From the sequence record OR525701.1: a stretch of DNA of 64,000 nucleotides. One strand, written 5' to 3'. A program made the translations under genes and the position numbers. Shown piece after piece: positions 1-30,428 of this stretch. The DNA is from Escherichia phage vB-Eco-KMB38. Within the stretch, counting starts at the first letter, position 1, and each line of letters opens with the position of its first letter. The notes beneath the pieces are model-generated. The model ran no database searches and was not told where the DNA came from. It saw only the letters and a list, made by a program, of their open reading frames with translations.

Positions 1-2214
1 TTATTTGGCCGCTTCCACGGCCTTCATGAATTTAACGATTTGAGCGACCTGTTCTTTGGAAAGAGTACCACGTCGTCCCATGTAGTCTGACACAATATGA
101 TAATTGGTTTCGAATTCAATAACCATTTTATCATCATTATCGTAAGCATTATCTTTAAGCTTATCGAAAATTTTAGCACACAATTCTAACTTCTTATTCA
201 GGTCTGTATTAGTAGCACCTGCGAATCGATTCCATCCCCAACGATTATTTACTGTTGAGAGTTTTGCAAAGTCTTTACTGATTTCTTTGTTCTTAGAGCT
301 AAAATACTTACTAAGGAAGTTAAGCTCTTCATTACGAGTAATATGATTCAAATAAGGCTGTGCTCTACGACTTGGTGATACATACTCATCATAATCCACT
401 TTATCGATTAGCGTAATATAGTCATTAATTGATTTTTCGAACAAGCATTCTACTTCACCAAGTTTACGAACTTTCTTAGCAATCTGTGGACGAACTACAG
501 TGAACTCTTTAATACCTGACAAATCAGCAATACGAGTCAAGAAATTGGAGTCATAGTTCAACCAACCTTTATCTGCGTCAAGACATTCAGCATTAGAACG
601 ATTACGAACTATAGCATAACCTTGGATCTCATCAGCTTTACTGGCCGGAATAAAAAGGTCTTCTGATACCCAAACATCTTTTTCGTTCTTAAAGAACCGA
701 TGAGCACTTGGGGATTTAGGACGAGGCTGCGATGAACGTTCTTTAACTTCAATCCACGGTTTAACTAATGCAAGAATTTCAGAGGTCTTATAAAATTTAA
801 GGCTATCACCAGCGAAAATAACCTTTAATCGTTCCAGAAGTTTCATTGCAACTTCATCTTCCGGGTTAATGAATAATACGCTACTACCATATCCGGAAGG
901 AACCTTATCAACGAGTGTTGATGCATCTGTGGAAGTCAAAGCATCGTTCAGAGCACGCATCATTGGTACGCGGCCTTTCACATCGTCAATAACAATATCA
1001 ATATGCTTACGACTAATACCTAGCAGGCTATTAATTGAAATAGTTGCAGACGAGCTTCCGCTTTCACGAATACGACGAAGTCGTGGGTCTGAAACGTTAT
1101 CATATACAACACCAAGGTTGCACCATTCGGGTCCCATTTTAAAACGTTTGTACAACTCAGAATAAGTTAGCTGTTCTTTAGAATATTTCAGTGATTCAAT
1201 ATTAGAACCAGCTTTTTCCATGTATTTACGAGCAGAGTAACCAAGAGAATCGATTTCACGGAATACATGACGTGGATATTCACAATCAATCCATTTCTTA
1301 GAATCTTCAGCAAATAATTTTGCATCAATTTCTGCAACGCGTTTATGGATATTTGCTACTGTACGTTTATCAAATGACAATGCTTCACGAGACGGGGCTA
1401 CATCTAGTTCACCCATAGGGAATTTAATATAAGCTGTAGTGCATCGCGTCATCATCCATGTTTGTTCTTTAATAACACTTCCGATTGGATATACAATACC
1501 ACCATAAACAGCCATGATATTACCACGTTCACCCCATGGAGCTTCCTTAGCCAAATATACATCGTCAAATTCAGGAAAGTATTTAATATCTTTAACACCG
1601 CGAACTTCTGCAATATCACCTAGAGGACGCATAACATATGCAATTTCAGATGCGAACTTTTCAAAATCTTCTGGGTTAACCGGCACAACTACTTCTACAC
1701 CCGTACGGTCATCAGGGCCCATCTTATCTACAAAGGTCGGCTTAATCTGTGGACCACTGTCATCTTGGTAGATTACGTAACCACGAACTTCACCGTTGTG
1801 ATAAGACGTAAGGTTAAACGTATCGGTATATGCTAGTGGAGCTTTAGAGCCGAGTCCGAATCCGCCAATGAAATCGTTACTCGATGTTTTAGTTGAAGCA
1901 AAATATGAGTTATAGATTCCTGGCTCTTCGTCATTACCTCTAATGGTGAAATCGCTCATGCCAGGACCAAAGTCTCGAACTACAAAACGTGGGTCTAAAC
2001 GACCTGGAGCCTGAACAATAAACTTATCAGTGCAACCATTAAGAATTTGTCCATCGATACAGTTTGTGATTAATTCACGTACACAAGCCAATTCTTTGTT
2101 TGTATAAAGGTCATTAGACAAAATCTTATAAACTTTGCTATTGCCTTGAATAGTGAATGCTGTGCTCTTACCGCCTGAACCAATAATCGTTTCTTTAGCT
2201 GTTTCAATAATCAT
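1..2214 (-). CDS. rIIA: rIIA protein (GHKL/Bergerat-fold ATPase-like N-terminal region)
   Basis: 737 aa ORF with DFGPGM motif; size and position next to the topoisomerase gene match T4 rIIA (725 aa). Confidence 0.8.
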   Translation of the reverse strand: MIIETAKETIIGSGGKSTAFTIQGNSKVYKILSNDLYTNKELACVRELITNCIDGQILNGCTDKFIVQAPGRLDPRFVVRDFGPGMSDFTIRGNDEEPGIYNSYFASTKTSSNDFIGGFGLGSKAPLAYTDTFNLTSYHNGEVRGYVIYQDDSGPQIKPTFVDKMGPDDRTGVEVVVPVNPEDFEKFASEIAYVMRPLGDIAEVRGVKDIKYFPEFDDVYLAKEAPWGERGNIMAVYGGIVYPIGSVIKEQTWMMTRCTTAYIKFPMGELDVAPSREALSFDKRTVANIHKRVAEIDAKLFAEDSKKWIDCEYPRHVFREIDSLGYSARKYMEKAGSNIESLKYSKEQLTYSELYKRFKMGPEWCNLGVVYDNVSDPRLRRIRESGSSSATISINSLLGISRKHIDIVIDDVKGRVPMMRALNDALTSTDASTLVDKVPSGYGSSVLFINPEDEVAMKLLERLKVIFAGDSLKFYKTSEILALVKPWIEVKERSSQPRPKSPSAHRFFKNEKDVWVSEDLFIPASKADEIQGYAIVRNRSNAECLDADKGWLNYDSNFLTRIADLSGIKEFTVVRPQIAKKVRKLGEVECLFEKSINDYITLIDKVDYDEYVSPSRRAQPYLNHITRNEELNFLSKYFSSKNKEISKDFAKLSTVNNRWGWNRFAGATNTDLNKKLELCAKIFDKLKDNAYDNDDKMVIEFETNYHIVSDYMGRRGTLSKEQVAQIVKFMKAVEAAK

Positions 2215-2226
2215 ATTTTTCTCTCA

Positions 2227-2427
2227 TCACAAGTTACGTTTAAAAATTTCTGCTACTTCAAGAAGTTCTTCTTTAGTAGCTGTATCGGTTTGTATTTTAT
2301 ATCGAATTTCTTTAAAGCGTTCTTTAAATGACTCTGCTGACTCGATATCAAAAAATCTTTGGATAAGCCGGAATTCCCGGAGCACCGCTTTATCAAAAAG
2401 TTCCAAGTCCACGTTATATGTTCTCAT
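2227..2427 (-). CDS. small hypothetical protein (rIIA.1 position)
   Basis: 66 aa ORF immediately downstream of rIIA on same strand. Confidence 0.5.
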   Translation of the reverse strand: MRTYNVDLELFDKAVLREFRLIQRFFDIESAESFKERFKEIRYKIQTDTATKEELLEVAEIFKRNL

Positions 2428-2519
2428 AATATTCTCTTCAGTAGATTCCTAGGGCACTATTACTAAAGACCATATAATTTATCATCTTATGTGTAATAGT
2501 GCCTCAGGCTATTCAGGAT

Positions 2520-3620
2520 TTACGCTGTGAAGATTTTATCCCACATCGCAACAACTGCATCTCGATTATACTTCTTCCATACTGCTTCAGCACGTTTAAC
2601 TCGAGCTTCGTATGTGTCAGTGAATTCTAATACAGCTTTTGTGTAAAGCGCAACTACTTCTTTCTTAGGAGTAGAGGAATCAATTTCTACACGCACAGTA
2701 TCTGGGTCGTATTCGAATGTCGCATGAGGATAATCCTTAAAAACTAACTGGATTACAGGGACACCTTTAGAGATGGCTTCAATAGAACTATTCTCTACCG
2801 TACCTGTGTCAGGACATGTATTAATAAGTGCTTTAGCTGTTTTAAGACGTTCCATGATTTCACTGTGTGGAGCATCAATAATAACAGGATATTTAGCTGG
2901 TGGTGCCCATTTGCTTGGACAATAACCAATACCATTTTCGCCTAGTGCTTTAATTGCTTCAAGAGCAACATCAGTGCGACGCATCTTAGTGTCATAACGT
3001 TGAGCACTAATAATCAAATCAGTTGCCGGAAGAACTTCAGGTTTTTCATTCAAACAAATAACCGGGTAGTCATCAGGTTCAAATAATGGATTTTCACGCC
3101 AGTAGTCATAATCAATTTTGTCAGTAAGAGCTGAAGTCATATGACAATATTTACGTTCAAATTCACGGAAGGCTTTAGTAGGAGCATAGCTCTTCCCACC
3201 GTTCTTGTGAATCTGGATAGTCTGATCCCAAATTTGAACAATACCACGAGACACCGGTTCAAATGGCGTAGCCATAAAATTCTTATGAACTTTAGAGAGA
3301 CCTGCGTCTTTAATTGCTTGGACGGTTAGTTTAGTCGGTTCCATAGTAACAACAAAATCGTATTCATGGATGCCGGCTAGTTCAACAATCTTACGAGCCA
3401 TAGTATAACTCATACCTAGACTGAATTTAGTCAGATGACCAACAGGATGGTGTGTAACTTTCCAGTCACCAAACGTGTCATTATCAAAGCCGATATAATC
3501 AATATCAGCACCGATGGACACAAGATATTTCAACACATTTAAATGTACTGCTTCAAGTCCACCTTGTACACGGTCAGGATTAAATGGGACTGCACGAGAT
3601 GGGATAAACATAACTTTCAT
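2520..3620 (-). CDS. hypothetical protein, lineage-specific insertion between rIIA.1 and gene 39; candidate DNA sugar-transferase
   Basis: 366 aa ORF with no T4 counterpart at this position; followed by UUCG hairpin terminator; function inferred only from context. Confidence 0.6.
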   Translation of the reverse strand: MKVMFIPSRAVPFNPDRVQGGLEAVHLNVLKYLVSIGADIDYIGFDNDTFGDWKVTHHPVGHLTKFSLGMSYTMARKIVELAGIHEYDFVVTMEPTKLTVQAIKDAGLSKVHKNFMATPFEPVSRGIVQIWDQTIQIHKNGGKSYAPTKAFREFERKYCHMTSALTDKIDYDYWRENPLFEPDDYPVICLNEKPEVLPATDLIISAQRYDTKMRRTDVALEAIKALGENGIGYCPSKWAPPAKYPVIIDAPHSEIMERLKTAKALINTCPDTGTVENSSIEAISKGVPVIQLVFKDYPHATFEYDPDTVRVEIDSSTPKKEVVALYTKAVLEFTDTYEARVKRAEAVWKKYNRDAVVAMWDKIFTA

Positions 3621-3630
3621 AATTAAGCCT

Positions 3631-3664
3631 TATTAAAATTAAAATGAAGCTCCCGAAGGAGCTT
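3631..3664 (-). terminator. hairpin (AAGCUCC-UUCG-GGAGCUU) followed by U-rich tract, overlapping gp39 stop codon
   Basis: inverted repeat with UUCG tetraloop read on minus strand. Confidence 0.55.
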
Positions 3665-5480
3665 AGGACATCCATTCTTTACGAAGTTCTGAATCATCAC
3701 CCATGAGCATTTCAAATAGTTCTTTCCAATTTTCAGGAAGTTTAACTACGTCGTACACTGGGTTCTGAATCATTTCACGATATTCTGACTTTTCAAGGGA
3801 GCCCAATCCCTTGATGTATCGAATACTATGCTTAGGCAGTGTATCTTTAACTTCTTCATACTCAGCTACAGTATAAAACCATTTTTGAGTTTTGCCAATT
3901 TGTGCAATAATTACAGGCGTTTTAACAAAGCGAATACGTCCTTGTTCAAACAATTCAGGCCAATTACTAAAGAAAGCAAGCAAAGCCGGATAAATACTTC
4001 CAAGACCGTCATGATCGGCATCAGTCATAATTGCAATATTACGATAGTTCGTATTCTCTGCCTTTTCACCAAGAATAAGACCTGTGATAGCACAGATATC
4101 AAAGAGCTCTTTGTTCTTCATCATATCAGCATATGACATACCCCAGCTATTCATCACCTTACCACGTAATGGGAATCCACCGTGTAGTTCACGGTCACGA
4201 ACATCAATGAGATAACCAATTGCCGAATCACCTTCTGTTAAGAACAATGTCGTATCTGCATCTTTACCACATTGGTTAGCTTTAATATGCTTATGAACTT
4301 TAGCTTTAGTTGCCTTTTTAGCTGCTTTAGTTTCTGCAGCCTTTTCTGCCGCCAATTTACGAGCTAATGCTGCTTCAACAATAGGCATAATCAAGGCTTC
4401 GTTTTTAAGAAGTGCCTGAGCAATTTTCTTAGCATCTAATTGGATATGATTACGAATATCACCATACGTCGACGTTAAACGTTCTTTAGTCTGAGAATCA
4501 AAACGCATGTTGCTCATGTCTCTAATAAACATCAACATTGTGAGGCATTCTTTAACACGAGCTTTAGTGACTTCAATACCTTTATATTTCTTTTTAATAC
4601 CCGGCAAAAGATGTTCGCAGATATCATCCATTACACATTCAACATGATGTCCGCCATTTTTAGTATGGATGTTATTCACATAAGTTAAATGACGGAAGCC
4701 ATCTGGTGATGTTGTGAATGCTATAGAGACTTTATCATTTTCTTGAATGATGTTATCTTCACCAAATTGTTTAGCAAATCGTTTAAAATTACCATCAACC
4801 TTTTTACCATTAAATGTGAACTTGATATCAGGATAAACGACTGCTAATGTTTGAAGTCGGTCTAAAGTAATATCTAAATAAATTTGAGATAAATTATGCT
4901 CTTCAAATGAAGTGAAATCAGGAGTGAAGATTACTTTAGTGCCTTTACCTTTAGATTTCTTAGAAGACCATGATTTGTTTTCCATTCCGTTTGAACAGTT
5001 AACAGTGATTTCATTTTCGCCATCTGACGTGATGCCTGTAAACAACGTAGAGAAGATATTAGTTAAACTACTCCCGACGCCGTTCATACCACCAGTCTTG
5101 CGTTCAGAATCATCACCAAAGTTACCACCGGCCTTTGGAATAGTCCAGGCTGCTACAGGCCCAGGAATTTGTTCACCTGTTTGGTCAGTAACTAAACCTT
5201 GAGGAATACCACGGCCGTTATCTTCCACCGAAACTTGATTATTTTTAATTTGCACATCAATTTTATTTGCAAACTTAAATGATGTACGAATAGCTTCATC
5301 AACCGAGTTGTCAATAATCTCATCGATTAATTTAACCAGACCAGGAACATATTCAACTTGTTGATATTTACCAAACAAAAAACGCTCGTGGGCTTCTTTA
5401 GCAGAAGAACCAATATACATGCCACTACGTTTCTTAATATGTTCTACATCTGACAGTACCTTAATTTCATTTTTAATCAT
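3663..5480 (-). CDS. 39: DNA topoisomerase II large subunit (GyrB-like), single polypeptide (39+60 fused type)
   Basis: 605 aa; GHKL ATPase motif IDNSVDE, GGMNGVGSS loop, toprim region; position after rIIA. Confidence 0.9.
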   Translation of the reverse strand: MIKNEIKVLSDVEHIKKRSGMYIGSSAKEAHERFLFGKYQQVEYVPGLVKLIDEIIDNSVDEAIRTSFKFANKIDVQIKNNQVSVEDNGRGIPQGLVTDQTGEQIPGPVAAWTIPKAGGNFGDDSERKTGGMNGVGSSLTNIFSTLFTGITSDGENEITVNCSNGMENKSWSSKKSKGKGTKVIFTPDFTSFEEHNLSQIYLDITLDRLQTLAVVYPDIKFTFNGKKVDGNFKRFAKQFGEDNIIQENDKVSIAFTTSPDGFRHLTYVNNIHTKNGGHHVECVMDDICEHLLPGIKKKYKGIEVTKARVKECLTMLMFIRDMSNMRFDSQTKERLTSTYGDIRNHIQLDAKKIAQALLKNEALIMPIVEAALARKLAAEKAAETKAAKKATKAKVHKHIKANQCGKDADTTLFLTEGDSAIGYLIDVRDRELHGGFPLRGKVMNSWGMSYADMMKNKELFDICAITGLILGEKAENTNYRNIAIMTDADHDGLGSIYPALLAFFSNWPELFEQGRIRFVKTPVIIAQIGKTQKWFYTVAEYEEVKDTLPKHSIRYIKGLGSLEKSEYREMIQNPVYDVVKLPENWKELFEMLMGDDSELRKEWMS

Positions 5481-8968: not shown

Positions 8969-9646
8969 TTATCGCTGTTTTACACTTAACGGGTCAGGAT
9001 TCTCAGGGACATCTTCAAGGCCAAGCGCATAACGCTGAGCATATTTTAACATCAAAATATCTTTAGCACAATCGTGAATACTATCATGGGCAACGAATCC
9101 TTTTAGCGTACCCATCGGTAATGGACACATACTTAATCCTCGTGTCAACGAGTAAGCTTCGATTGCCGTACGAATATCACGTTGAGCCCAGAATTTAACA
9201 GGTTCTAATTTATCAGTATCAATATCTGGTTCAAGAACACCTTCATCACGATAGAGGTCACGAATCAAATCGACCAATATCGGGAAGTCAAAGCTCATAC
9301 CACGGCACCACATCTGTGATTTCCATTGGTCAACTTTATTAGCTCGACAATAATCTAAAAAGATTTTAATGCCTTCAAGCGTAGTGACATCGTCTTCAGA
9401 CGGAGCCAAGTTTTTACGCGCTTCAGCCGATTGTTCTTTCCACCATTTCATAGTGGATTTAGCGAAAACTCGCTTCCCTTTCTGAGAAGCTAAATTAAAT
9501 TTAATTCGCTTACCTCGTTGAACAAGTTCTTCAAATGATTCAACAACTTCAGGGTCGGAATTATATGCAATAACCGCAAGGTCAATAACAGCCGCTTTTG
9601 ATGTATTGCCGAATGTTTCAAAATCTATAATAACATCAGTGCTCAT
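8969..9646 (-). CDS. dexA: exonuclease A (DEDD 3'-5' exonuclease)
   Basis: 225 aa; DFETFG exo motif; position upstream of dda as in T4. Confidence 0.8.
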   Translation of the reverse strand: MSTDVIIDFETFGNTSKAAVIDLAVIAYNSDPEVVESFEELVQRGKRIKFNLASQKGKRVFAKSTMKWWKEQSAEARKNLAPSEDDVTTLEGIKIFLDYCRANKVDQWKSQMWCRGMSFDFPILVDLIRDLYRDEGVLEPDIDTDKLEPVKFWAQRDIRTAIEAYSLTRGLSMCPLPMGTLKGFVAHDSIHDCAKDILMLKYAQRYALGLEDVPENPDPLSVKQR

Positions 9647-9655
9647 AATTTTCTC

Positions 9656-10969
9656 TCAAATAAAATGGACGTCAAAACGACCACGAGTTGTGCCGACATA
9701 CAATAACTGTTTAGCTAATTCTGAATCGGCATAATGGATACACGGTGTATAAACAAAGGCTGTGTCAACAGACATACCCTGGGCCTTATGGAAGGTTGAT
9801 ACTGGTAGTGCCTTCACCTTAGTGAACATACGTTTAGCATCCCAGAATTCGCTCCATGGAGCTTTACCACCTTTATTCCAGAATTTGTATGTTTCTGCGG
9901 TCTTAGCCAAAAACAAATTGAATTTATAAAGCTCTTCTTCAGAAGAAATAACCTTTATATCTTCGCGGATGTATTCTTCATCATCACCATATGTTTCTAC
10001 TGTAAGATTCCAGTATCGTATCATATATTCGCCTGAAACACCACGTGCTTTAACGAATGTAGACGTTTCTACAGCATCTCGAATACGAACGAATTGCCCG
10101 TTATTGAAAAGCATTTCGGTCATATTTTTACCATCTAGCTTATATGTCTTAGTAAATGGCTCTTGTAGAACAATGACTTCGTCTTTAATAAATGGTTTTT
10201 CTGTTTCAAGAAGTTTTCGGCGAATAATTGAATTTAACTTGTCCACCGACTTATTTGTGAATGCCATCATTCGATTTTCGAAAAGGTCTTCAGGAGTTTT
10301 AACGACGTTAAAATAGTTCATCATATACGATTTAAGGTCTGTATATCCATGAACACCGTGTCCATCAACTACTTTATCGTAAATCCATTTGCCATTACGA
10401 ATATCAGTCGCAACATCAATAATTGGTGCATTGCTACGTTTAACTTCTGTAAGGTTGCATTGCACGAAGTCTTTGTGAGTGAAGAAAGGACTTAGATACG
10501 CAGTTGATTCGCCTGGGTCTACCGGTCGAATCTGGCATCGGTCACCAATTCCAATTACTGTGCACCATTTAGGGATACTAGCTAACATTATTTTAAACAG
10601 AGGACGGTCGCACATTGACGCTTCATCAAATAACAGTACACGACACAAGGCTAAGTCGGGAACCTTTTTCTGTTCAAACAATACGTTTTCTTCGTATGTA
10701 GTTGGGTTGATTTTAAGAATGCTATGAATAGTCGATGCTTCTTGACCCGCAAGTTTGCTTAGAACCTTTTTAGCAGCATGTGTAGGGGCTGCTAAAATAA
10801 TACCTGATTCTCCAGAAGAAATAAGGGCTTCAACGATGAATCTAGTAAGGGTTGTTTTACCTGTACCAGCGGGTCCATTAATAGTTACATGATGTTTCTT
10901 TTCTTTAATAGCTTCCATAACAACGTTGAAGGCGTTTTTCTGGCCTTCAGTCAAATCATCAAATGTCAT
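9656..10969 (-). CDS. dda: Dda DNA helicase (SF1B)
   Basis: 437 aa; Walker A GPAGTGKTT; T4 dda is 439 aa at same position. Confidence 0.9.
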   Translation of the reverse strand: MTFDDLTEGQKNAFNVVMEAIKEKKHHVTINGPAGTGKTTLTRFIVEALISSGESGIILAAPTHAAKKVLSKLAGQEASTIHSILKINPTTYEENVLFEQKKVPDLALCRVLLFDEASMCDRPLFKIMLASIPKWCTVIGIGDRCQIRPVDPGESTAYLSPFFTHKDFVQCNLTEVKRSNAPIIDVATDIRNGKWIYDKVVDGHGVHGYTDLKSYMMNYFNVVKTPEDLFENRMMAFTNKSVDKLNSIIRRKLLETEKPFIKDEVIVLQEPFTKTYKLDGKNMTEMLFNNGQFVRIRDAVETSTFVKARGVSGEYMIRYWNLTVETYGDDEEYIREDIKVISSEEELYKFNLFLAKTAETYKFWNKGGKAPWSEFWDAKRMFTKVKALPVSTFHKAQGMSVDTAFVYTPCIHYADSELAKQLLYVGTTRGRFDVHFI

Positions 10970-22270: not shown

Positions 22271-22633
22271 TTAAAAGAATTTAAATTTTTTCTTGGTTCG
22301 TTCATTAAAAGCTTGTTGTACTTGCATTGTAACACATTTTTCAACGTGCGGTGCAAGTTCTGCTTTTCTGTCCTGGTCAAGAACTGCAAAGTCCATTACG
22401 ATTTTACCATCAACCCAGTCTAGTTTTGTAATATAGACTATATGATGGGAACCGTCTTCAAGTGTAATCAGAATCTCTTGAATGACATTTTCCATTGCTG
22501 AACGGATAATTTTAAGAGATTCATTAAACACTCGTTCTTTGCGAATGTCTTCCCCTTCCGAAGAAGGGGATTCATCAACGATTTCTAGATTTAAATCATC
22601 GAGATTATTCATCGAAATCTTCCATTTCGTCAA
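22271..22633 (-). CDS. hypothetical protein (gene 40 position)
   Basis: 120 aa ORF between 41 and uvsX. Confidence 0.5.
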   Translation of the reverse strand: MTKWKISMNNLDDLNLEIVDESPSSEGEDIRKERVFNESLKIIRSAMENVIQEILITLEDGSHHIVYITKLDWVDGKIVMDFAVLDQDRKAELAPHVEKCVTMQVQQAFNERTKKKFKFF

Positions 22634-23777
22634 GGTCGTTTTCTATATCTGCTGCAGACGGAGCATCAGAAGTTTTAACCGGAACTTTAGTTGTTGCTTT
22701 GCAATTAATAAGGTCGTTAACCGCGTCATCAACTTCTTTAATAGAAGAGATAGCACCTAGTTTATATTTAGTTTCAATTGCATCTCGGAAAGGTTTGTGT
22801 TTAAACAACGGTCCCCAGAATTCTACACAATCAGTAGCTTTAGCACGCCATGATTTTTCTTCACGAATCATTTCACCTGTTTCTTCGTCAAGGAATTCAC
22901 GAGCATACCAACCAGCTTTAGGCTTAACCACAAAACCGATTTCAGTTGCCATTTCTAACAAGCCACTGAATGGGTCAATACCACCGTCGAAATTAACCGT
23001 GATCGGGAAAGTAGATTTCTCTTTAACTGTACGAGATTTTTCTGCTTTCAACGTGAAGTCATAACCAGTCAATTCTGTACCTTCTTTAACCTGACGTTTA
23101 GAGATAAAAAATACCGTGTTGGCGGAATAAAGAATACCTGTACCACCACCCATAATCTCTTTAGGATACAATCCGCCAATTTCCATTGCAGTATGGTTAA
23201 TTGCAACACATGGAATATCTTTAATAGTCAGATAAGGAGTCACAATGCGGAACAGAGATTTAAGTGCCTTAGCACGAGACATATCACCTACAACTTTCTC
23301 GTTCAATGCATCTTCAGTTTCTTTCTTAGATGCAGTATTACCGATTGAATCGATAAAGATAATAACTTTATCACCCCGTTCAATCGCGTCAAGCTGATTA
23401 GTCATATCAACTTTAAGTTGTTCGACAGATTGAATCGGAGTATGAACTACACGGTCTAAATCAACACCCATTGAACGAAAATAAGATTCTGAAGCACCGA
23501 ATTCTGAGTCATAAAACAAACAGATTGCATCTTTATATTTCTTCATATATGCTGCAACCATGGTCAGCCCAAACAATGTTTTAAAGTGTTTAGAAGGAGC
23601 AGCAAAAATAGTTAAGCCTGATTGCAACCCGGCATTCAGTGCACCACCTAGTGCAATATTCAACATCGGAATACGAGTAGGGACTTCATCACGATTATTA
23701 AACAGCTTAGACTTAGTCAAGTCTGCAGTCATTTTAGAAGTAGAAGCTTTAATCAGACGAGATTTTAAATCAGACAT
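22605..23777 (-). CDS. uvsX: UvsX recombinase (RecA-like)
   Basis: 390 aa; RecA-fold P-loop FAAPSKHFKT; T4 UvsX is 391 aa. Confidence 0.9.
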   Translation of the reverse strand: MSDLKSRLIKASTSKMTADLTKSKLFNNRDEVPTRIPMLNIALGGALNAGLQSGLTIFAAPSKHFKTLFGLTMVAAYMKKYKDAICLFYDSEFGASESYFRSMGVDLDRVVHTPIQSVEQLKVDMTNQLDAIERGDKVIIFIDSIGNTASKKETEDALNEKVVGDMSRAKALKSLFRIVTPYLTIKDIPCVAINHTAMEIGGLYPKEIMGGGTGILYSANTVFFISKRQVKEGTELTGYDFTLKAEKSRTVKEKSTFPITVNFDGGIDPFSGLLEMATEIGFVVKPKAGWYAREFLDEETGEMIREEKSWRAKATDCVEFWGPLFKHKPFRDAIETKYKLGAISSIKEVDDAVNDLINCKATTKVPVKTSDAPSAADIENDLDEMEDFDE

Positions 23778-23875: not shown

Positions 23876-24424
23876 TTAACGAGCCCATTTGATAATTTCT
23901 GTAATCAAATAATTACGTTCGCTTGCATTAAATCCTATAACTTTGTTAGCACCATCATGATTAAGTAATTGATACGTTTGGATTTTGTTATGAATTGCAA
24001 ACTCTTCAAAATGTGAAATGACTGTATTAAAACCGAATGAGGACAAAGTAATAAGGTCGTCTTCAAAACTTTCAGTCATTTCGTTACGTGTTAAAATAAT
24101 TGTGAACACATCATGGTTTTGGCAAAGACGAACATAATCCTGTTCATAAACGTCAAGAACCGAGTCCGCATCTTGTCGAATACGTCCATAAACCCAGTTA
24201 CTAATATATCCACGGTCTAACAGATAAATCTTAGTAGGGTCTAAATAATTCAACATCGTTTCGAAGCAGCCAACTTCATTTCGAGACTTAACATCGAAAC
24301 GCCCATCAACTGTTCGTTTAGGGAAATCAATCTTTACATATCTTTCACTAATTTCCATTATGTCATTAATGAAAGTTGTTTTACCAGCATTATCTGGGCC
24401 ATCTACTAAAATAATTTTAGCCAT
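23876..24424 (-). CDS. P-loop kinase-like protein (Walker A GPDNAGKTT), substrate unknown
   Basis: 182 aa; occupies the T4 beta-glucosyltransferase locus between uvsX and 42. Confidence 0.6.
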   Translation of the reverse strand: MAKIILVDGPDNAGKTTFINDIMEISERYVKIDFPKRTVDGRFDVKSRNEVGCFETMLNYLDPTKIYLLDRGYISNWVYGRIRQDADSVLDVYEQDYVRLCQNHDVFTIILTRNEMTESFEDDLITLSSFGFNTVISHFEEFAIHNKIQTYQLLNHDGANKVIGFNASERNYLITEIIKWAR

Positions 24425-24425
24425 T

Positions 24426-25325
24426 TTATTCCTCGATTACGACATCTTCATATTTAGGTATATTATACGGTGAAGAAATTAAAGCATTAAAGTAGATGAA
24501 CTCACCAAGACCTGGATGAAATACTTCTTCAGGATTTTCGAAATATTGAATCTTCGGACGTCCTTTAAGAATTTGATAGTACTCAGTTTTAGTTGGTTTA
24601 AAAATTCGAATCAGCGCTTCTTCAGGATACTTATTTCTGTCGAAGCTATTATTTGGATCGGTTATATAAAGCGGTTGACCTAATTGAATTGCACATTCAA
24701 CCACTTGTTCAAAACGATAGCATGGGTCACTAATTCGAAATGGATGAAAAATACCATCTAGATGAATAGGAGCCAAATCACCCACAAGACGCTGCATGAT
24801 GGAAGGACGTATAACTTTCTGAGTTACGATAATCTTATTACCATCTGCACCTGCGTTAACCAGCACTTCTTTTTGACGTTCATTCAACACAGTAGTTTGA
24901 AGTGAACGATTAACTGACAACATATCGGTTTTTAAGAATTCGTCAATATAAAAACGTGGTTTATTAGGGTCTGCCGTGATATTGAAATTGAATTCTACAT
25001 CAAAAGCGCCGTCATATCCAGTGATATCTGTTATTAGAAAATCACAATCATAATAAGCAATTAATGAATCAACCACAAATTCATTTTCAGACCAGAAATA
25101 TTTACGAGTGTTATACGCGTTATCTTTATACCATAATGGAACAAACTTAAATTCCGGGAAAAGACGTTCACATTCTTTAATATCAGATGCATTACGTGGA
25201 TATGTAATCACATCACCTGGATTAGCACGGTGCAAATGAAGTTGGAAGTTGCCATCCTTAAGGATAGCATACTGTCCAGTTTCATAAGACCGCATACTCA
25301 AGATAGGTACGCGGAAAATAGCCAT
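24426..25325 (-). CDS. hypothetical protein, candidate DNA sugar-transferase
   Basis: 299 aa ORF tightly packed between the P-loop gene and gene 42; no recognisable motif. Confidence 0.6.
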   Translation of the reverse strand: MAIFRVPILSMRSYETGQYAILKDGNFQLHLHRANPGDVITYPRNASDIKECERLFPEFKFVPLWYKDNAYNTRKYFWSENEFVVDSLIAYYDCDFLITDITGYDGAFDVEFNFNITADPNKPRFYIDEFLKTDMLSVNRSLQTTVLNERQKEVLVNAGADGNKIIVTQKVIRPSIMQRLVGDLAPIHLDGIFHPFRISDPCYRFEQVVECAIQLGQPLYITDPNNSFDRNKYPEEALIRIFKPTKTEYYQILKGRPKIQYFENPEEVFHPGLGEFIYFNALISSPYNIPKYEDVVIEE

Positions 25326-26041
25326 TAGTCAAGGAATCCTTTAACATAATCAAAATCACGTTCAAACACATGGGCACTTACCATGGTATGAGTATAATCA
25401 CCAACTTCTACACCGCATTCGTTAGCGATATAATGAAGTAATTTTCCTTGGAGATAAAAATCCAATTGCATAACAACAGCACAGTTCTGAGAACGCATAT
25501 GACAGTGGGTATAAAGCTTACCATCACGAATATAATAGGTCACTGAGTCAGTACATGGATATTCAAGCGTTTCGTCTGAATCAAGCAAAGCCTGATCAGA
25601 ACTTTCTAGAATTTGGAACACAACTCTTCGAGAGTTAGGTTTCTCTTTAAGTTCTTTTAGAAGAGCTGGTAATTGGGCCGCAATGCGAGGACCATAGAAA
25701 GTGTTGAAGTTCGCAGGCAAAGCATCTGATTTTGGTTTAGAAATGAATTTAGCGACATTAGGATATGCCTTAAACGCTTCTTCTGCATCAGTACCACCAG
25801 AAATCATAAACTTCCAGAAGTCTTCGGCATATTCATAAGAGATGCGGTTAATACGTGGGTCAGTCATTTTGAATGATGACGGAGTGTCAACAACTACTGT
25901 CATAGACCCAATTTCATTACAACGACCAATACGAGAATCAGTTACGAATTCCGGGTTTTCTAAAATTTCACGATTGACTGCTTTAAATGCGGTTTGAAAA
26001 TCTGCGGCTTTGATATATTTCATTGTGTTATGTTTTCCCAT
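25325..26041 (-). CDS. 42: dCMP hydroxymethylase (thymidylate synthase family)
   Basis: 238 aa; PNSRRVVFQI, YPCTDSVTYYIRDGK and HMRSQN segments parallel T4 gp42 as I recall it. Confidence 0.8.
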   Translation of the reverse strand: MGKHNTMKYIKAADFQTAFKAVNREILENPEFVTDSRIGRCNEIGSMTVVVDTPSSFKMTDPRINRISYEYAEDFWKFMISGGTDAEEAFKAYPNVAKFISKPKSDALPANFNTFYGPRIAAQLPALLKELKEKPNSRRVVFQILESSDQALLDSDETLEYPCTDSVTYYIRDGKLYTHCHMRSQNCAVVMQLDFYLQGKLLHYIANECGVEVGDYTHTMVSAHVFERDFDYVKGFLD

Positions 26042-26319: not shown

Positions 26320-27480
26320 TCATTCCGGGTACCTCAAAGCGTCATCAGAGTTAGTTATATCAATAATAGATATAGAGTTTTCTGCTAACCCATTTTTAGA
26401 TAACTGACGTTTATAATATCTTTCACAATATGTACACGTCGTCCCGCAGATTTCATTAGCACAATCGAAATCTGGATGTCTGAACCACCTTTTTTCTAAA
26501 AAGCCATCTAACAAAGAGGTTTCAATATTTACTGTATGTGAAAACTCGGTCTCATTTTCAAGAGTGAAAATAGTCTCTAAAGGCTTCCACAGTTCTAACA
26601 AATTACCTTCAAACTTTTCAGAAGCGTATGCTTCAAGAACTTTCAAAATGTAGTCTGTGCTACCTGTACGTCCTGAAACTTTGAATTGAGTGATACCAAT
26701 ATCATTATAAAGTTTCAAATCTTGAGGACGAACAAAACGAGTTCTCAACCAGTTAAATGGGTCTGTATCACGAGCTTTAATACAGTGCTGCATAGGATAT
26801 CCGTTTAAGGATTTAGCATCATCAGCTGTAACATCAGTACTATGGAAAATATAGCAAGAGTCACGATAGCTACAATGTGTTGTATACCCTTTACCAGCAT
26901 TAGAACAGAACTCATTTACAAGAACTTCAAATATTATATTGTTCTTATTGCAAAACTCTGCTGCACGCTTCAGGAAAGAAACTGAACGGTTCTTATGAAT
27001 TCCACAGCAGACCTTTTTGATATTATACTGGTCATGCAAGTATTTGATTTGAGTTACAGCATCGACATGTAGAATTGTTGAAACTTCAATCTCAATGTCT
27101 TTATTGACTTCACGAACAATTTCCATAACAACAGGGTTAGCGATAGTAATACGCCATACGCCTATTGACCAAAGATACTGAACATAATCCTGAATAGCTT
27201 TCTTCTTCCACTCAACTAGTTCTCTTTTTGAACCAGGATTTATCGTGTTGAGTGTATAGTTAAAGCAAATACCTAATTCGTTACAACGTTTAACGTAATC
27301 TTCTAACATCTTTTTGTCAACGTCAGGAAGCCTAAAATCAGGTCTGGCTGCTACAAAAGCCATTTCTCTTGTAGAGCCGTATACTTCATTTATCAAGCTA
27401 TTAGGATAAGTTTTATTGAGCTCTACGATTTTATCAAGAAGAGCTAAATCAAAATTCGTTCCGATTTTAAAAGTATTCAT
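26320..27480 (-). CDS. Cys-rich enzyme of unknown function (tentative peptidase-U32-like/metal-binding)
   Basis: 386 aa; C-terminal CANEICGTTCTYC cluster and internal CSNAGKGYTTHCSYRDSC; part of island between 42 and 43. Confidence 0.6.
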   Translation of the reverse strand: MNTFKIGTNFDLALLDKIVELNKTYPNSLINEVYGSTREMAFVAARPDFRLPDVDKKMLEDYVKRCNELGICFNYTLNTINPGSKRELVEWKKKAIQDYVQYLWSIGVWRITIANPVVMEIVREVNKDIEIEVSTILHVDAVTQIKYLHDQYNIKKVCCGIHKNRSVSFLKRAAEFCNKNNIIFEVLVNEFCSNAGKGYTTHCSYRDSCYIFHSTDVTADDAKSLNGYPMQHCIKARDTDPFNWLRTRFVRPQDLKLYNDIGITQFKVSGRTGSTDYILKVLEAYASEKFEGNLLELWKPLETIFTLENETEFSHTVNIETSLLDGFLEKRWFRHPDFDCANEICGTTCTYCERYYKRQLSKNGLAENSISIIDITNSDDALRYPE

Positions 27481-27539: not shown

Positions 27540-27941
27540 TTATAGATTCGGTTTATACGATTTAAATGTTTCGAATTCGCCTTTATTCATAAGAGCTTTG
27601 AATTCGTCAGGACGCATAGCTTTGTCGTCGATAATCCAATCATATACTGGTTTATGTGTTAGCAAATTATGGTACTTCAAGCCAATGTTTGCCAAGTTCT
27701 GAATCAGACTTGGGAGAATGTCAATTGCTATACGACCAGGACCTACTGACTTCATACCGCGAGCAGTGTAAAGCGTTATGGTATGCCCTGCATCATACAG
27801 GGCATTAATGGCAGACACCATTTCGACGTCTGGTTTGAAGTTCACGTAATCACGATTGTTATTCCACTCTGTTATACAATCATCGACATCAAAACAAAGA
27901 TTAAGCATGTTTTCTACACGGCGCATTAGATTCGTTCCCAT
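27540..27941 (-). CDS. HAD-superfamily phosphatase-like protein
   Basis: 133 aa; N-terminal FDVDDCIT resembles HAD motif I; small cap-less HAD architecture. Confidence 0.6.
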   Translation of the reverse strand: MGTNLMRRVENMLNLCFDVDDCITEWNNNRDYVNFKPDVEMVSAINALYDAGHTITLYTARGMKSVGPGRIAIDILPSLIQNLANIGLKYHNLLTHKPVYDWIIDDKAMRPDEFKALMNKGEFETFKSYKPNL

Positions 27942-29611
27942 TGATGAGTGATATCGCCACCGATTGGACGATAGGAAACACCAGTTTCTTTATCAGTTAG
28001 TACCCATTTACCAGGATTTTTTGTAATCAGAGTAGCCGTTACAGGTTCTGCTACGTCATAACTAATAGAGCCGTCTTGAAGTACACGGCCCATATTACGT
28101 AATTGCTTAGTCAGAAGTTCCATACCTTTATAATATGCGGCTACCGCTTTAAGTGGATTATTCTTGAAATAACCACCTAATGCAATCCAGATAATTGCCA
28201 CTGCCAAATGATGATACTCGTTAAACGAACTCATCTTTCCATATTTGTAAACTAATGGATTGATGTTAATAGTCACATTACAAGTTGTTTCATCAATAGT
28301 AAACTGCCCCCAGGTCGGATTAGCGTTGAATTCATCATATCCTGAAACAGCGTAAAGCACTTTAGCTTCATCGTACAATTTTGGCCCGTAAATCTTGGTT
28401 TCACCAAAATATCCACGAGGGTCGATAAACTTGACTTCGCCGTTATCAGTAATCATAGTATTACTGAAGTTCGGGTCACCATGAATAACAGAGTACTGTC
28501 CCTGAGAACGGTTATGATAACGAATAAGGTGTTCTAAAGCTTGTTTCAGCATTGGCTTCAGACGTCCAATCTTAGTGTAGTTCACATGTGTGATTTTACC
28601 AAATGAATCAATCAATGGTTGAATGCTTTCACAACGATCAATAACTTTCGTATAGAATTCTTTAGTGAAATCACGACGAACAGTTTCAGGACTTACAAAA
28701 TAAGTGTCTGTGCTGAATTTCAGTGCATCTAAAATTGCATCAACAATTTGTGGACGAGCAAGACTTGATTTGGATTTAATATATTCAAATGCTGGCTTAC
28801 CTTTAATGCGTTCCATTTCAAAGTTATTTTCATTAACAGAAACTAACTGAGGAACTGAATCTGATTTCACTTTAAGATACCACGAAATCTCATCTTTCTG
28901 AAGAGCTCGTCCCTGTTCGGTTAATGCGAATTTAGTTACAGTTTCTTCACCAATTTCAACTGCATTAAAACTACGATTAAGTTCACGAACTTCATGAGCT
29001 TTTTCAAGTTTAGGCATATCACCTAAATCAATTAGATTCATAAGCTCTGATTTATTGAATGCGCTGCCGTAAAGGAATTCTACGAAATCACGTCCTTTGC
29101 AGTATTCATGAATTTCCTCATCAGTAGAACCCATATAGAATTCCCAGTCTTTGAACTGATAAATTCCTACAACATTACCACCTGTTGAACCTACGTTAGT
29201 GATATTTTCACCGTCGAAATTATATCGACATTCGTCACCCTTAACATAGATTGCGTTAACATTCCAAGACCATGAACCAAAATCAGGAATAATATCACAC
29301 CAGTTAACAATTACATTATGGCCGTCTAAATCTTTGTGTAATTTAGCAAGAGCATAAGCAGAACCATACGCTTCATCAACTGTACGAATAGTCACATTGA
29401 ACCCTTCTTGCTCACAATAAGCTCGAACGGTTTCAGCAAATTTTGAATGAACTACTACAATAATTTCATCTGCGCCAAGGTCAGAATAAATTGTATACAA
29501 ATTGCTCAGAATAGTGTCTTGTTTATAGTTAACAAGCACCTTAGGAATATGATGCGTTATTGGATACAAACGAGTTGCCAGTCCAGCACCAAGAATAACA
29601 GCTTTTTTCAT
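27926..29611 (-). CDS. bifunctional sugar-1-phosphate nucleotidyltransferase / sugar kinase (APH/choline-kinase-like)
   Basis: 561 aa; N-terminal AVILGAGLATRLYP nucleotidyltransferase motif; C-terminal IHGDPNFSN Brenner-type kinase motif. Confidence 0.7.
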   Translation of the reverse strand: MKKAVILGAGLATRLYPITHHIPKVLVNYKQDTILSNLYTIYSDLGADEIIVVVHSKFAETVRAYCEQEGFNVTIRTVDEAYGSAYALAKLHKDLDGHNVIVNWCDIIPDFGSWSWNVNAIYVKGDECRYNFDGENITNVGSTGGNVVGIYQFKDWEFYMGSTDEEIHEYCKGRDFVEFLYGSAFNKSELMNLIDLGDMPKLEKAHEVRELNRSFNAVEIGEETVTKFALTEQGRALQKDEISWYLKVKSDSVPQLVSVNENNFEMERIKGKPAFEYIKSKSSLARPQIVDAILDALKFSTDTYFVSPETVRRDFTKEFYTKVIDRCESIQPLIDSFGKITHVNYTKIGRLKPMLKQALEHLIRYHNRSQGQYSVIHGDPNFSNTMITDNGEVKFIDPRGYFGETKIYGPKLYDEAKVLYAVSGYDEFNANPTWGQFTIDETTCNVTININPLVYKYGKMSSFNEYHHLAVAIIWIALGGYFKNNPLKAVAAYYKGMELLTKQLRNMGRVLQDGSISYDVAEPVTATLITKNPGKWVLTDKETGVSYRPIGGDITHQWERI

Positions 29612-29644
29612 GTTGAAGTCCTCATTGGTAAGTAGGAGTATTGT

Positions 29645-29788
29645 ACACTATTCTAGTTAAAGCATTCATACTTTGCTTGTAGTCCAATCATAATCCATCC
29701 AATTACAAGTGTTGGAATCATTACCGGAGCCGTTAAGCTCCAGTAGATAGTCATGACAAGCATCAATAGTAAAAGTCCTATTGTTATT
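29645..29788 (-). CDS. small hydrophobic peptide (47 aa)
   Basis: hand-translated ORF MKAITIGLLLLMLVMTIYW... between SIS gene and kinase gene; below ORF-track cutoff. Confidence 0.3.
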
Positions 29789-29792
29789 GCTT

Positions 29793-30428
29793 TCATTGCT
29801 CGCCTCGTAACATGGCACCTAGTGCACCGCCAGGGTGGAACTTAAGGAAATCATTAGAGGTAAATCCACGTTCAGACGAAAGGTTGATAGCAAACGTATC
29901 GATAAGCGCTAACAACAATGTAGTGGACATAGTCGGAGCCAGAGAATTCTCATCAACCTCTACCGCGATGCCGGTGCAGAACGTATAATCAAAAAGAGCT
30001 TCGTATTCTTGTGGAATGTCAGGGTTACAATGTAACAGAATCTGTTTAACCTGAGGACGAATCATACGAAGATGTTTAGCAACACCTATCATTTCTTCAG
30101 TCTTACCAGAACGACTGATGTGGACTAATACATCATTAGGTGCAATAAATCCTGCGTCACCATGAGAATAATGCCCGGTATTCAAATACATGCTAGGAAT
30201 ACCTAGTGAAGCAAAAGTCTCGGAAGCTTTAGTTGCGATATTAGCATTCTTACCAACACCTGTAATAATTACCCGGCTTTCATAATTACTAAGTCCAGGG
30301 CGTCGAAGAGTTTCTAGAATAGCATTATAACGAGCAGGGTTTTGACTAATTACTTTAGCCATAGTGGCAAGAGATGAAGCTTGTTTTACGATTGCGTCAA
30401 TAGCGATAGTAATAGGAGTAGTTTTCAT
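29793..30428 (-). CDS. SIS-domain sugar-phosphate isomerase, arabinose-5-phosphate isomerase (KdsD/GutQ/KpsF)-like, no CBS domains
   Basis: 211 aa; VIITGVGKNANIATK..HGD..ISRSG and LAPTMSTT...FHPGGALG motifs parallel KdsD SIS domain. Confidence 0.75.
   Translation of the reverse strand: MKTTPITIAIDAIVKQASSLATMAKVISQNPARYNAILETLRRPGLSNYESRVIITGVGKNANIATKASETFASLGIPSMYLNTGHYSHGDAGFIAPNDVLVHISRSGKTEEMIGVAKHLRMIRPQVKQILLHCNPDIPQEYEALFDYTFCTGIAVEVDENSLAPTMSTTLLLALIDTFAINLSSERGFTSNDFLKFHPGGALGAMLRGEQ

Follow-up and report, generated by a model that had tools for sequence, protein, structure and literature searches.

A GT-B glycosyltransferase encoded between rIIA.1 and gene 39 of Escherichia phage vB-Eco-KMB38 as the probable second enzyme of DNA arabinosylation

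The sugar decoration of phage DNA determines to which restriction enzymes, CRISPR systems and DNA glycosylases a phage is vulnerable, and thereby affects both host range in phage therapy and the engineering of T-even phages. In the 64,000-nucleotide stretch of Escherichia phage vB-Eco-KMB38 analysed here (sequence record OR525701.1; "the window" means this whole stretch), an open reading frame (ORF) of 366 amino acids occupies positions 2520-3620, beside the rII genes. What does this gene encode, and if its product transfers a sugar, to which acceptor? An earlier annotation made from the letters alone, the sequence-only reading, had proposed a lineage-specific candidate DNA sugar transferase. 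Here we place the gene in a known family, compare its distribution with the chemistry reported for phage DNA and weigh the roles that it might play. The transferase would be one determinant of the decoration, by lengthening an arabinose chain.

We adopt, as very probably correct, the published proposal that the enzyme adds a second, beta-1,3-linked arabinofuranose from uridine diphosphate (UDP)-arabinofuranose (UDP-Araf) to DNA-bound arabinosyl-5-hydroxycytosine. We prefer this reading because the family is more narrowly distributed than the putative first arabinosyltransferase, AraT1, because its copy number tracks the length of the sugar chain, and because its paralogues in Acinetobacter phage DLP3 extend DNA that is already arabinosylated.

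The transferase is already known: it was a candidate in 2018, was annotated in the GenBank records of Bas46 and Bas47 in 2021, and appeared in structures in 2025 and in pathway papers in 2025-2026. Window positions 2200-3700 are 100% identical in nucleotide sequence to Escherichia phage AlbertHofmann (Bas47, MZ501047.1) and to phage PTK, and the Bas47 counterpart, bas47_0105, is annotated as a 'putative hmC-arabinosyltransferase', where hmC stands for 5-hydroxymethylcytosine. By tblastn the protein is 97.8% identical to ORF003c/gp3 of phage RB69 (NP_861693.1), which also has 366 amino acids, differs by about eight substitutions and shares with the window gene its coordinates (2523-3620), its neighbours gene 39 and rIIA.1, and a sugar island located elsewhere; by sequence, the two are the same gene in sister phages. 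ORF003c is thus the arabinosyltransferase candidate near rIIA of RB69 that the sequence-only reading had mentioned. It was proposed as an arabinosyltransferase from hidden Markov model and HHpred evidence for a GT-B fold, on the assumption of an hmC acceptor and a single arabinose, both since revised (Thomas et al. 2018, PMC6024577); RB69 gp3 is now listed as 'beta-arabinosyltransferase 2' (Lee et al. NAR 2026). A glycosyltransferase of phage HY126 is closer still at 98-99% identity, with a few substitutions (e.g. E176A, P183A/D184E, I231V and S315F). Its structures 9IQZ (apo) and 9IR0 (a UDP complex by entry title), released on 2025-07-16, were the sole target of a profile search of PDB sequences (E 4.6e-197). 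The full-length PHROG match, phrog_8302, covers residues 1-366 (E 1.3e-221) and is labelled 'unknown function'. On these alignments the window protein belongs to a family comprising RB69 ORF003c, the HY126 glycosyltransferase and PHROG 8302.

The fold points the same way. An AlphaFold (AF2) model from a 14-sequence alignment (pLDDT 92.2, pTM 0.88), which supersedes an earlier model from 6 sequences (pLDDT 59.7), predicts two Rossmann-like domains with a cleft between them. Foldseek places 9IR0 and 9IQZ at the top (99% identity, TM 0.96-0.97), followed by many GT-B enzymes at 10-15% identity. The sequence-only reading would have given way to a non-transferase domain; the predicted fold is that of a GT-B glycosyltransferase and, together with the orthology and the nearly identical UDP-bound crystal structure, it supports the candidate sugar transferase put forward there. 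The nearest non-phage structures are bacterial retaining GT4 enzymes (PimA, BshA, MshA, WaaG and sucrose-phosphate synthase; 10-15% identity), whose acceptors are lipids or small molecules and not DNA. Residues G20, R208, R214 and E281 (in EAISKGVPVI) are invariant or nearly so among the 14 family members, and G21 is invariant in six close relatives. The four family-wide residues fit a GT-B donor site, in agreement with the mapping of Thomas et al. (PMC6024577), who aligned Gly-20, Arg-207 and Glu-281 with Gly-15, Arg-204 and Glu-311 of the T4 alpha-glucosyltransferase (alpha-GT), residues that bind phosphate and ribose.

The acceptor has to be sought in the chemistry of the DNA, and here the premise of hmC in the sequence-only reading falls away. 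The modified base is an arabinosylated 5-hydroxycytosine, not hmC (PMC13326640, PMC13390438), and its 5-hydroxycytosine is made as 5-hydroxy-dCMP (5hodCMP) by a ThyA homologue (PMC13326640). The acceptor would accordingly be arabinosyl-5-hydroxycytosine, and hmC DNA would be the wrong substrate for an assay. RB69 DNA contains alpha-D-Araf-5-O-dC and beta-D-Araf-(1->3)-alpha-D-Araf-5-O-dC (PMC13326640), DNA of the Mosigvirus NP contains the mono- and di-arabinosyl forms at 1:4, and DNA of Bas46 and Bas47 contains doubly arabinosylated hydroxy-cytosine (PMC12923530). When the chain lengths reported in PMC13326640, PMC13390438 and PMC12923530 are set beside the number of family members, Thanatos, with no copy, has one sugar; RB69, NP, Bas46 and Bas47, with one copy each, have two; and DLP3, with two copies, has three.

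The family is small. A word-indexed search of 5.8 billion proteins returned five clusters at 90% identity, and an exhaustive search with a profile, over 1.84 billion representatives, returned 11 matches. By tblastn it occurs in 211 phage records, solely Mosigvirus (one copy) and Acinetobacter T4-like phages (two copies), whereas AraT1, a 299-residue protein, occurs in 348 records from many genera. AraT1 is carried without the 366-residue family by Klebsiella, Serratia, Dhakavirus, Yersinia, Proteus and Shewanella (Thanatos) phages, and at the genus level the phages with the family are a subset of those with AraT1. Loci from IMG/VR and the JGI metagenomes are of the Mosigvirus and Acinetobacter types only. 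For the divergent members (P0007-P0010, P0012 and P0015), searches of the IMG/VR and JGI metagenome loci gave no genomic context, and tblastn queries with P0007, P0009 and P0010 turned up no phage record nearer to them.

The Acinetobacter phages connect the family directly to the modification genes. At five of their loci, two tandem paralogues adjoin genes for the kinase, AraT1, the ThyA-like protein, the HAD protein, the NTP-transferase/kinase and the SIS protein, which ties the family to the arabinosylation pathway independently of the Mosigvirus layout. The co-occurrence with a SIS/kinase island that the sequence-only reading had suggested checking is found here, and the window itself holds all of the island genes. 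Presence in phages with unmodified cytosine had been named there as contrary evidence; every lineage with the gene carries the cytosine-arabinosylation cluster. The window protein is 43% identical to gp77 and 41% to gp76 of DLP3 over the full length, and in a rough neighbour-joining tree the Mosigvirus protein falls outside the gp76/gp77 duplication, hence co-orthologous to both. In vitro, gp76 and gp77 jointly use UDP-Araf to put a third arabinose on RB69 DNA; they act on arabinosylated DNA and are inactive on plain 5-hydroxycytosine (5hoC) DNA (PMC13326640). The two systems differ in that the DLP3 genes form a tandem pair within the island, are needed together and add the third (beta-1,5) arabinose, whereas in Mosigvirus a lone gene some 21 kb away from the island encodes the transferase, to which the second (beta-1,3) arabinose is ascribed.

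The pathway would then run as follows. Deoxycytidine (dC) would be replaced by 5-hydroxy-dC, made as the nucleotide by the thymidylate-synthase homologue, and AraT1 would attach the first alpha-D-arabinofuranose to the 5-oxygen. The 366-residue enzyme, probably a soluble GT-B (GT4-like) Leloir glycosyltransferase, would take UDP-D-arabinofuranose supplied by the SIS isomerase, the kinase/uridylyltransferase and the HAD phosphatase (27540-30428) and transfer a second arabinofuranose, beta-1,3, onto the first on polymerised DNA. The product would be beta-D-Araf-(1->3)-alpha-D-Araf-5-O-dC, as in RB69-type DNA, and the longer chain would change the set of host nucleases and glycosylases to which the DNA is susceptible. 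We infer that the window enzyme makes the beta-1,3 bond acting alone. Because its closest relatives in structure are GT4 enzymes of the retaining type, a retaining mechanism can be inferred as well, which would call for a beta (1,2-cis) UDP-D-Araf donor. Of the earlier proposal the transferase stands; the evidence favours a chain-extending second enzyme over one acting at the base itself.

A number of observations weigh against this assignment. The correlation between copy number and chain length covers only a handful of chemically analysed phages. The second-transferase role of RB69 gp3 is explicitly a proposal (PMC13326640), and we found no direct assay of the protein or of its RB69, Bas46/47 and HY126 orthologues in a literature search that did not cover Mahler 2025 and He 2026. 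Pfam gave no match to the protein at E<=10, Glycos_transf_1 and Glyco_trans_4 included, and NCBIfam none at E<=0.1; at the level of sequence it is thus not a GT4 member and is filed there by fold only, the depositors' PDB name 'Glycosyltransferase subfamily 4-like N-terminal domain-containing protein' being a label only. In sequence alignments the GT4 EX7E motif seems to lack its first Glu: the residue seven positions upstream of E281 is G273, and E276 is conserved instead, while the second Glu, E281, is kept. The retaining mechanism, as opposed to an inverting one, is suggested by the scaffold. Genetic evidence carries its own proviso, as the gene that Mahler et al. 2025 call Aat in Bas46 is presumably the one treated here, an identification that is second-hand. 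As reported in a paper citing that work (PMC13216743), deletion of this arabinosyltransferase leaves a viable phage that is now sensitive to a defence system, which fits a dispensable chain-extending enzyme.

Could the enzyme instead place the first arabinose directly onto the modified cytosine, as Thomas et al. thought in 2018 and as the GenBank label 'hmC-arabinosyltransferase' says? It was the sole glycosyltransferase-like protein recognised in RB69 at that time (PMC6024577), and the first step has yet to be demonstrated in vitro for any individual transferase (PMC13326640). We nevertheless give this initiating role only a slight chance. Many phages that have the 5hodCMP synthase, the UDP-arabinose genes and AraT1 have no member of the family, and one of these, Thanatos, is reported to be mono-arabinosylated with a single arabinosyl-glycosyltransferase (PMC13326640). 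It is AraT1, and not the 366-residue gene, that stays syntenic with the ThyA-like gene in every lineage. The activity of the DLP3 homologues on arabinosylated rather than 5hoC DNA (PMC13326640) and, provided that the second-hand identification of Aat is right, the viability of the Bas46 deletion (PMC13216743) argue in the same direction.

A target that is not DNA, for instance a lipid of the host envelope, lipopolysaccharide (LPS) or a protein, would suit the top non-phage structural matches (PimA, WaaG, BshA and MshA), which are GT4 enzymes of lipids, LPS and small molecules, and would suit the position of the Mosigvirus gene in an early-gene region beside rII, about 21 kb from the sugar island. 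It is highly improbable all the same, since the Acinetobacter paralogues are embedded in the DNA-arabinosylation cluster and modify DNA in vitro (PMC13326640), the family occurs solely in phages whose DNA is arabinosylated, and identity to the bacterial enzymes is just 10-15%. More serious for the proposal of an enzyme acting alone is that DLP3 gp76 and gp77 are each inactive singly and active jointly (PMC13326640), so that a partner may be needed here as well. The Mosigvirus protein, being co-orthologous to both, might work only in a heteromeric or sequential pair, with AraT1 or another phage protein as its partner. Against this, Mosigviruses make the di-arabinosyl base with one copy per record, and the HY126 protein was crystallised by itself with UDP; we consider an obligatory pair unlikely, while granting it some weight.

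Beyond the assignment of the enzyme as second arabinosyltransferase, the observations can be joined in a wider reading, which we offer tentatively as possible but on balance doubtful: copy number would set chain length, and the Mosigvirus enzyme would be a stand-alone, retaining-type (GT4-like) furanosyltransferase that works on a sugar carried by DNA and serves as a separately exchangeable 'chain-length module'. If true, this implies a beta (1,2-cis) UDP-D-arabinofuranose donor together with an inverting first transferase. Moving the transferase from the island to the junction of rIIA.1 and gene 39 would then let Mosigviruses tune their sensitivity to defences that read glycans.

Among known phage enzymes, the alpha- and beta-glucosyltransferases of T4 put glucose directly on hmC and have no detectable sequence similarity to the window protein (hhalign probability below 1% for both a-gt and b-gt). 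Within the window, which covers both of their T4 positions, tblastn for homologues of a-gt and b-gt returned noise only (best E 0.57-2.5), and to that extent the description of a phage lacking alpha/beta-gt holds. A functional analogue is the beta-glucosyl-HMC-alpha-glucosyltransferase of T2 and T6, which lengthens a sugar already present on the modified cytosine (to gentiobiosyl-hmC) and whose disaccharide, too, alters sensitivity to host defences. By description it differs in using glucose and not arabinofuranose, a hydroxymethyl and not a hydroxy linker, and UDP-Glc as donor.

The ORF is a real gene under purifying selection, because its 1101-nucleotide frame is intact in all nine relatives compared (from phage records, IMG/VR and metagenomes) and synonymous codon differences are in excess, with synonymous to non-synonymous counts of 45:7, 32:3 and 56:8 as examples among the nine. 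A chance ORF or a pseudogene is ruled out by the same two observations. Recent foreign insertion, judged by composition, was likewise rejected, as the ORF, at 39.6% GC, differs little from the window at 37.1%. A promoter scan gave 5 sites against 6.1 in shuffled sequences, no excess over chance. The well-formed ORF described by the sequence-only reading was recovered exactly, and its strand, which had not been stated, is minus (Table 1). So was its position between rIIA.1 and the topoisomerase gene: the order on the minus strand is gene 39 (3663..5480), the transferase, rIIA.1 (2227..2427) and rIIA (1..2214).

The same order is found in Bas47, PhAPEC2, JK45 and six metagenomic or viral contigs, while other phages carry different content at this point. 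T4 has gene 60, 60.1 and mobA (locus positions 2404-3777), in line with the claim that the gene has no T4 counterpart at this position, and Dhakavirus JS98 has a 588-nucleotide unannotated gap that contains small ORFs and a hairpin rich in GC (locus positions 2437-3024). No family member is present in T4 or JS98, and the tblastn search for the family, which found none outside Mosigvirus and Acinetobacter phages, agrees. The junction of rIIA.1 and gene 39 is a hot spot of plasticity.

The whole arabinosylation island also lies in the window, between the genes for DNA polymerase (30469-33180) and uvsX (22605-23777); its members are collected in Table 1 with the elements around the transferase. 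Supply of UDP-arabinofuranose has been described for AfhE/AfhF of HY126 and gp51-55 of RB69 (PMC13326640). The thymidylate-synthase homologue is only 24.8% identical to T4 gp42, and the 5-hydroxy-dCMP synthase activity of its RB69 orthologue gp48 has been demonstrated experimentally (PMC13326640). For AraT1 the role of first transferase is a proposal made for RB69 gp46:47 (PMC13326640), and no sequence similarity was found between it and the 366-residue protein. The 182-residue kinase-like gene is kept beside AraT1 in the Acinetobacter islands. The U32-like gene is not present in those five loci, which are otherwise collinear. RlhA and TrhP, oxygen-independent C5-hydroxylases of RNA, belong to the U32 family, and by analogy the phage protein could provide an alternative route to 5-hydroxycytosine; the NAR 2026 paper gives it only as a 'sugar or heterocycle reductase'.

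Table 1. Positions of the transferase gene, its flanking elements and the arabinosylation island in the window
Feature	Position	Strand	Basis or remark
Long hairpin in the 92-nt spacer (2428-2519) between the transferase stop and rIIA.1	2446..2510	minus	RNA fold
Coding sequence of the 366-residue GT-B glycosyltransferase (predicted fold)	2520..3620	minus	ATG start; TAA stop at 2522-2520
Shine-Dalgarno-like AAGG (candidate)	3628..3631	minus	7 nt 5' of the transferase ATG; from reading the sequence
C(UUCG)G-type hairpin with U-rich tract	3647..3664	minus	Terminator scan; RNA fold free energy (dG) -10.5 kcal/mol
182-residue nucleotide-kinase-like gene, RB69 gp45 orthologue	23876..24424	minus	Weak dTMP-kinase match
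AraT1, 299-residue putative first arabinosyltransferase, RB69 gp46:47 orthologue	24426..25325	minus	99.3% identity to ORF046/047
Thymidylate-synthase homologue, orthologue of RB69 gp48 5-hydroxy-dCMP synthase	25325..26041	minus	Pfam Thymidylat_synt 2.4e-15
U32-peptidase-like gene, RB69 gp50 orthologue	26320..27480	minus	Pfam Peptidase_U32 7.3e-11
HAD phosphatase	27540-27941	minus	TIGR01689
Bifunctional nucleotidyltransferase/kinase fusion	27926-29611	minus	Pfam NTP_transferase and kinase-like matches
SIS arabinose-5-phosphate isomerase	29793-30428	minus	Pfam SIS

Two hairpins flank the transferase gene. The one with the UUCG loop (AAGCTCC-TTCG-GGAGCTT; minus strand, 3664..3647) overlaps the gene 39 stop codon and sits 5' of the transferase gene. 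The UUCG terminator that the sequence-only reading had placed after the ORF therefore precedes it, between the gene 39 stop and the transferase start. As a terminator the element is putative, the scan having found 1 site against 1.1 expected from shuffled sequences; the authors of the PhAPEC2 record list this element as a terminator following gene 39. If functional, it would end or stabilise the message of gene 39.

The second hairpin, in the spacer downstream of the transferase stop, is different and larger. It has a perfect 11-bp stem (2453-2463/2493-2503) without a T-run, a predicted free energy of -27.7 kcal/mol (z -4.4; none of 200 shuffles was equally stable) and a sequence that is near-invariant across six Mosigviruses. 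An Rfam scan of 2200-3900 gave no match for it, returning one chance snoRNA match only. It might act in RNA processing or RNA stability, or contain the promoter for rIIA.1 and rIIA.

Several records depart from the common arrangement. One Mosigvirus contig from IMG/VR has about 850 extra bases (9150-9997) between gene 39 and the transferase. Shigella phage JK45 (MK962757.1), classed as Tequatrovirus yet Mosigvirus-like in this region, has a 503-bp tandem duplication at locus positions 521-1023, in which JK45_00003 is a fusion of rIIA.1 codons 1-5 (MRTYN) with transferase residues ~236-366, followed by a second copy of the 92-nucleotide spacer; either genuine recombination or a faulty assembly could account for it. 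In Acinetobacter phage Acj9 the first paralogue is in two pieces (locus positions 9432-10537), by frameshift or sequencing error, a split also noted by Thomas et al. as ORFs p082-p081 (PMC6024577), and the gene order of the island is rearranged relative to the other Acinetobacter phages. The record OZ038340.1, 'Tegunavirus sp. BRC001', has two copies, 92% identical to DLP3 gp77, like AbTZA1 and Maestro; its name looks wrong, the genome appearing to be of the Acinetobacter type.

The window itself is a mosaic relative to deposited genomes. Its transferase region (2200-3700) is identical to Bas47 and PTK, as given above, whereas the remainder is only ~98% identical to any deposited phage, which marks the window as a Mosigvirus isolate of its own: the best match is 98.1% for 14001-39000 (MM02 and mar005P1) and 98.8% for 39001-64000 (PTK).

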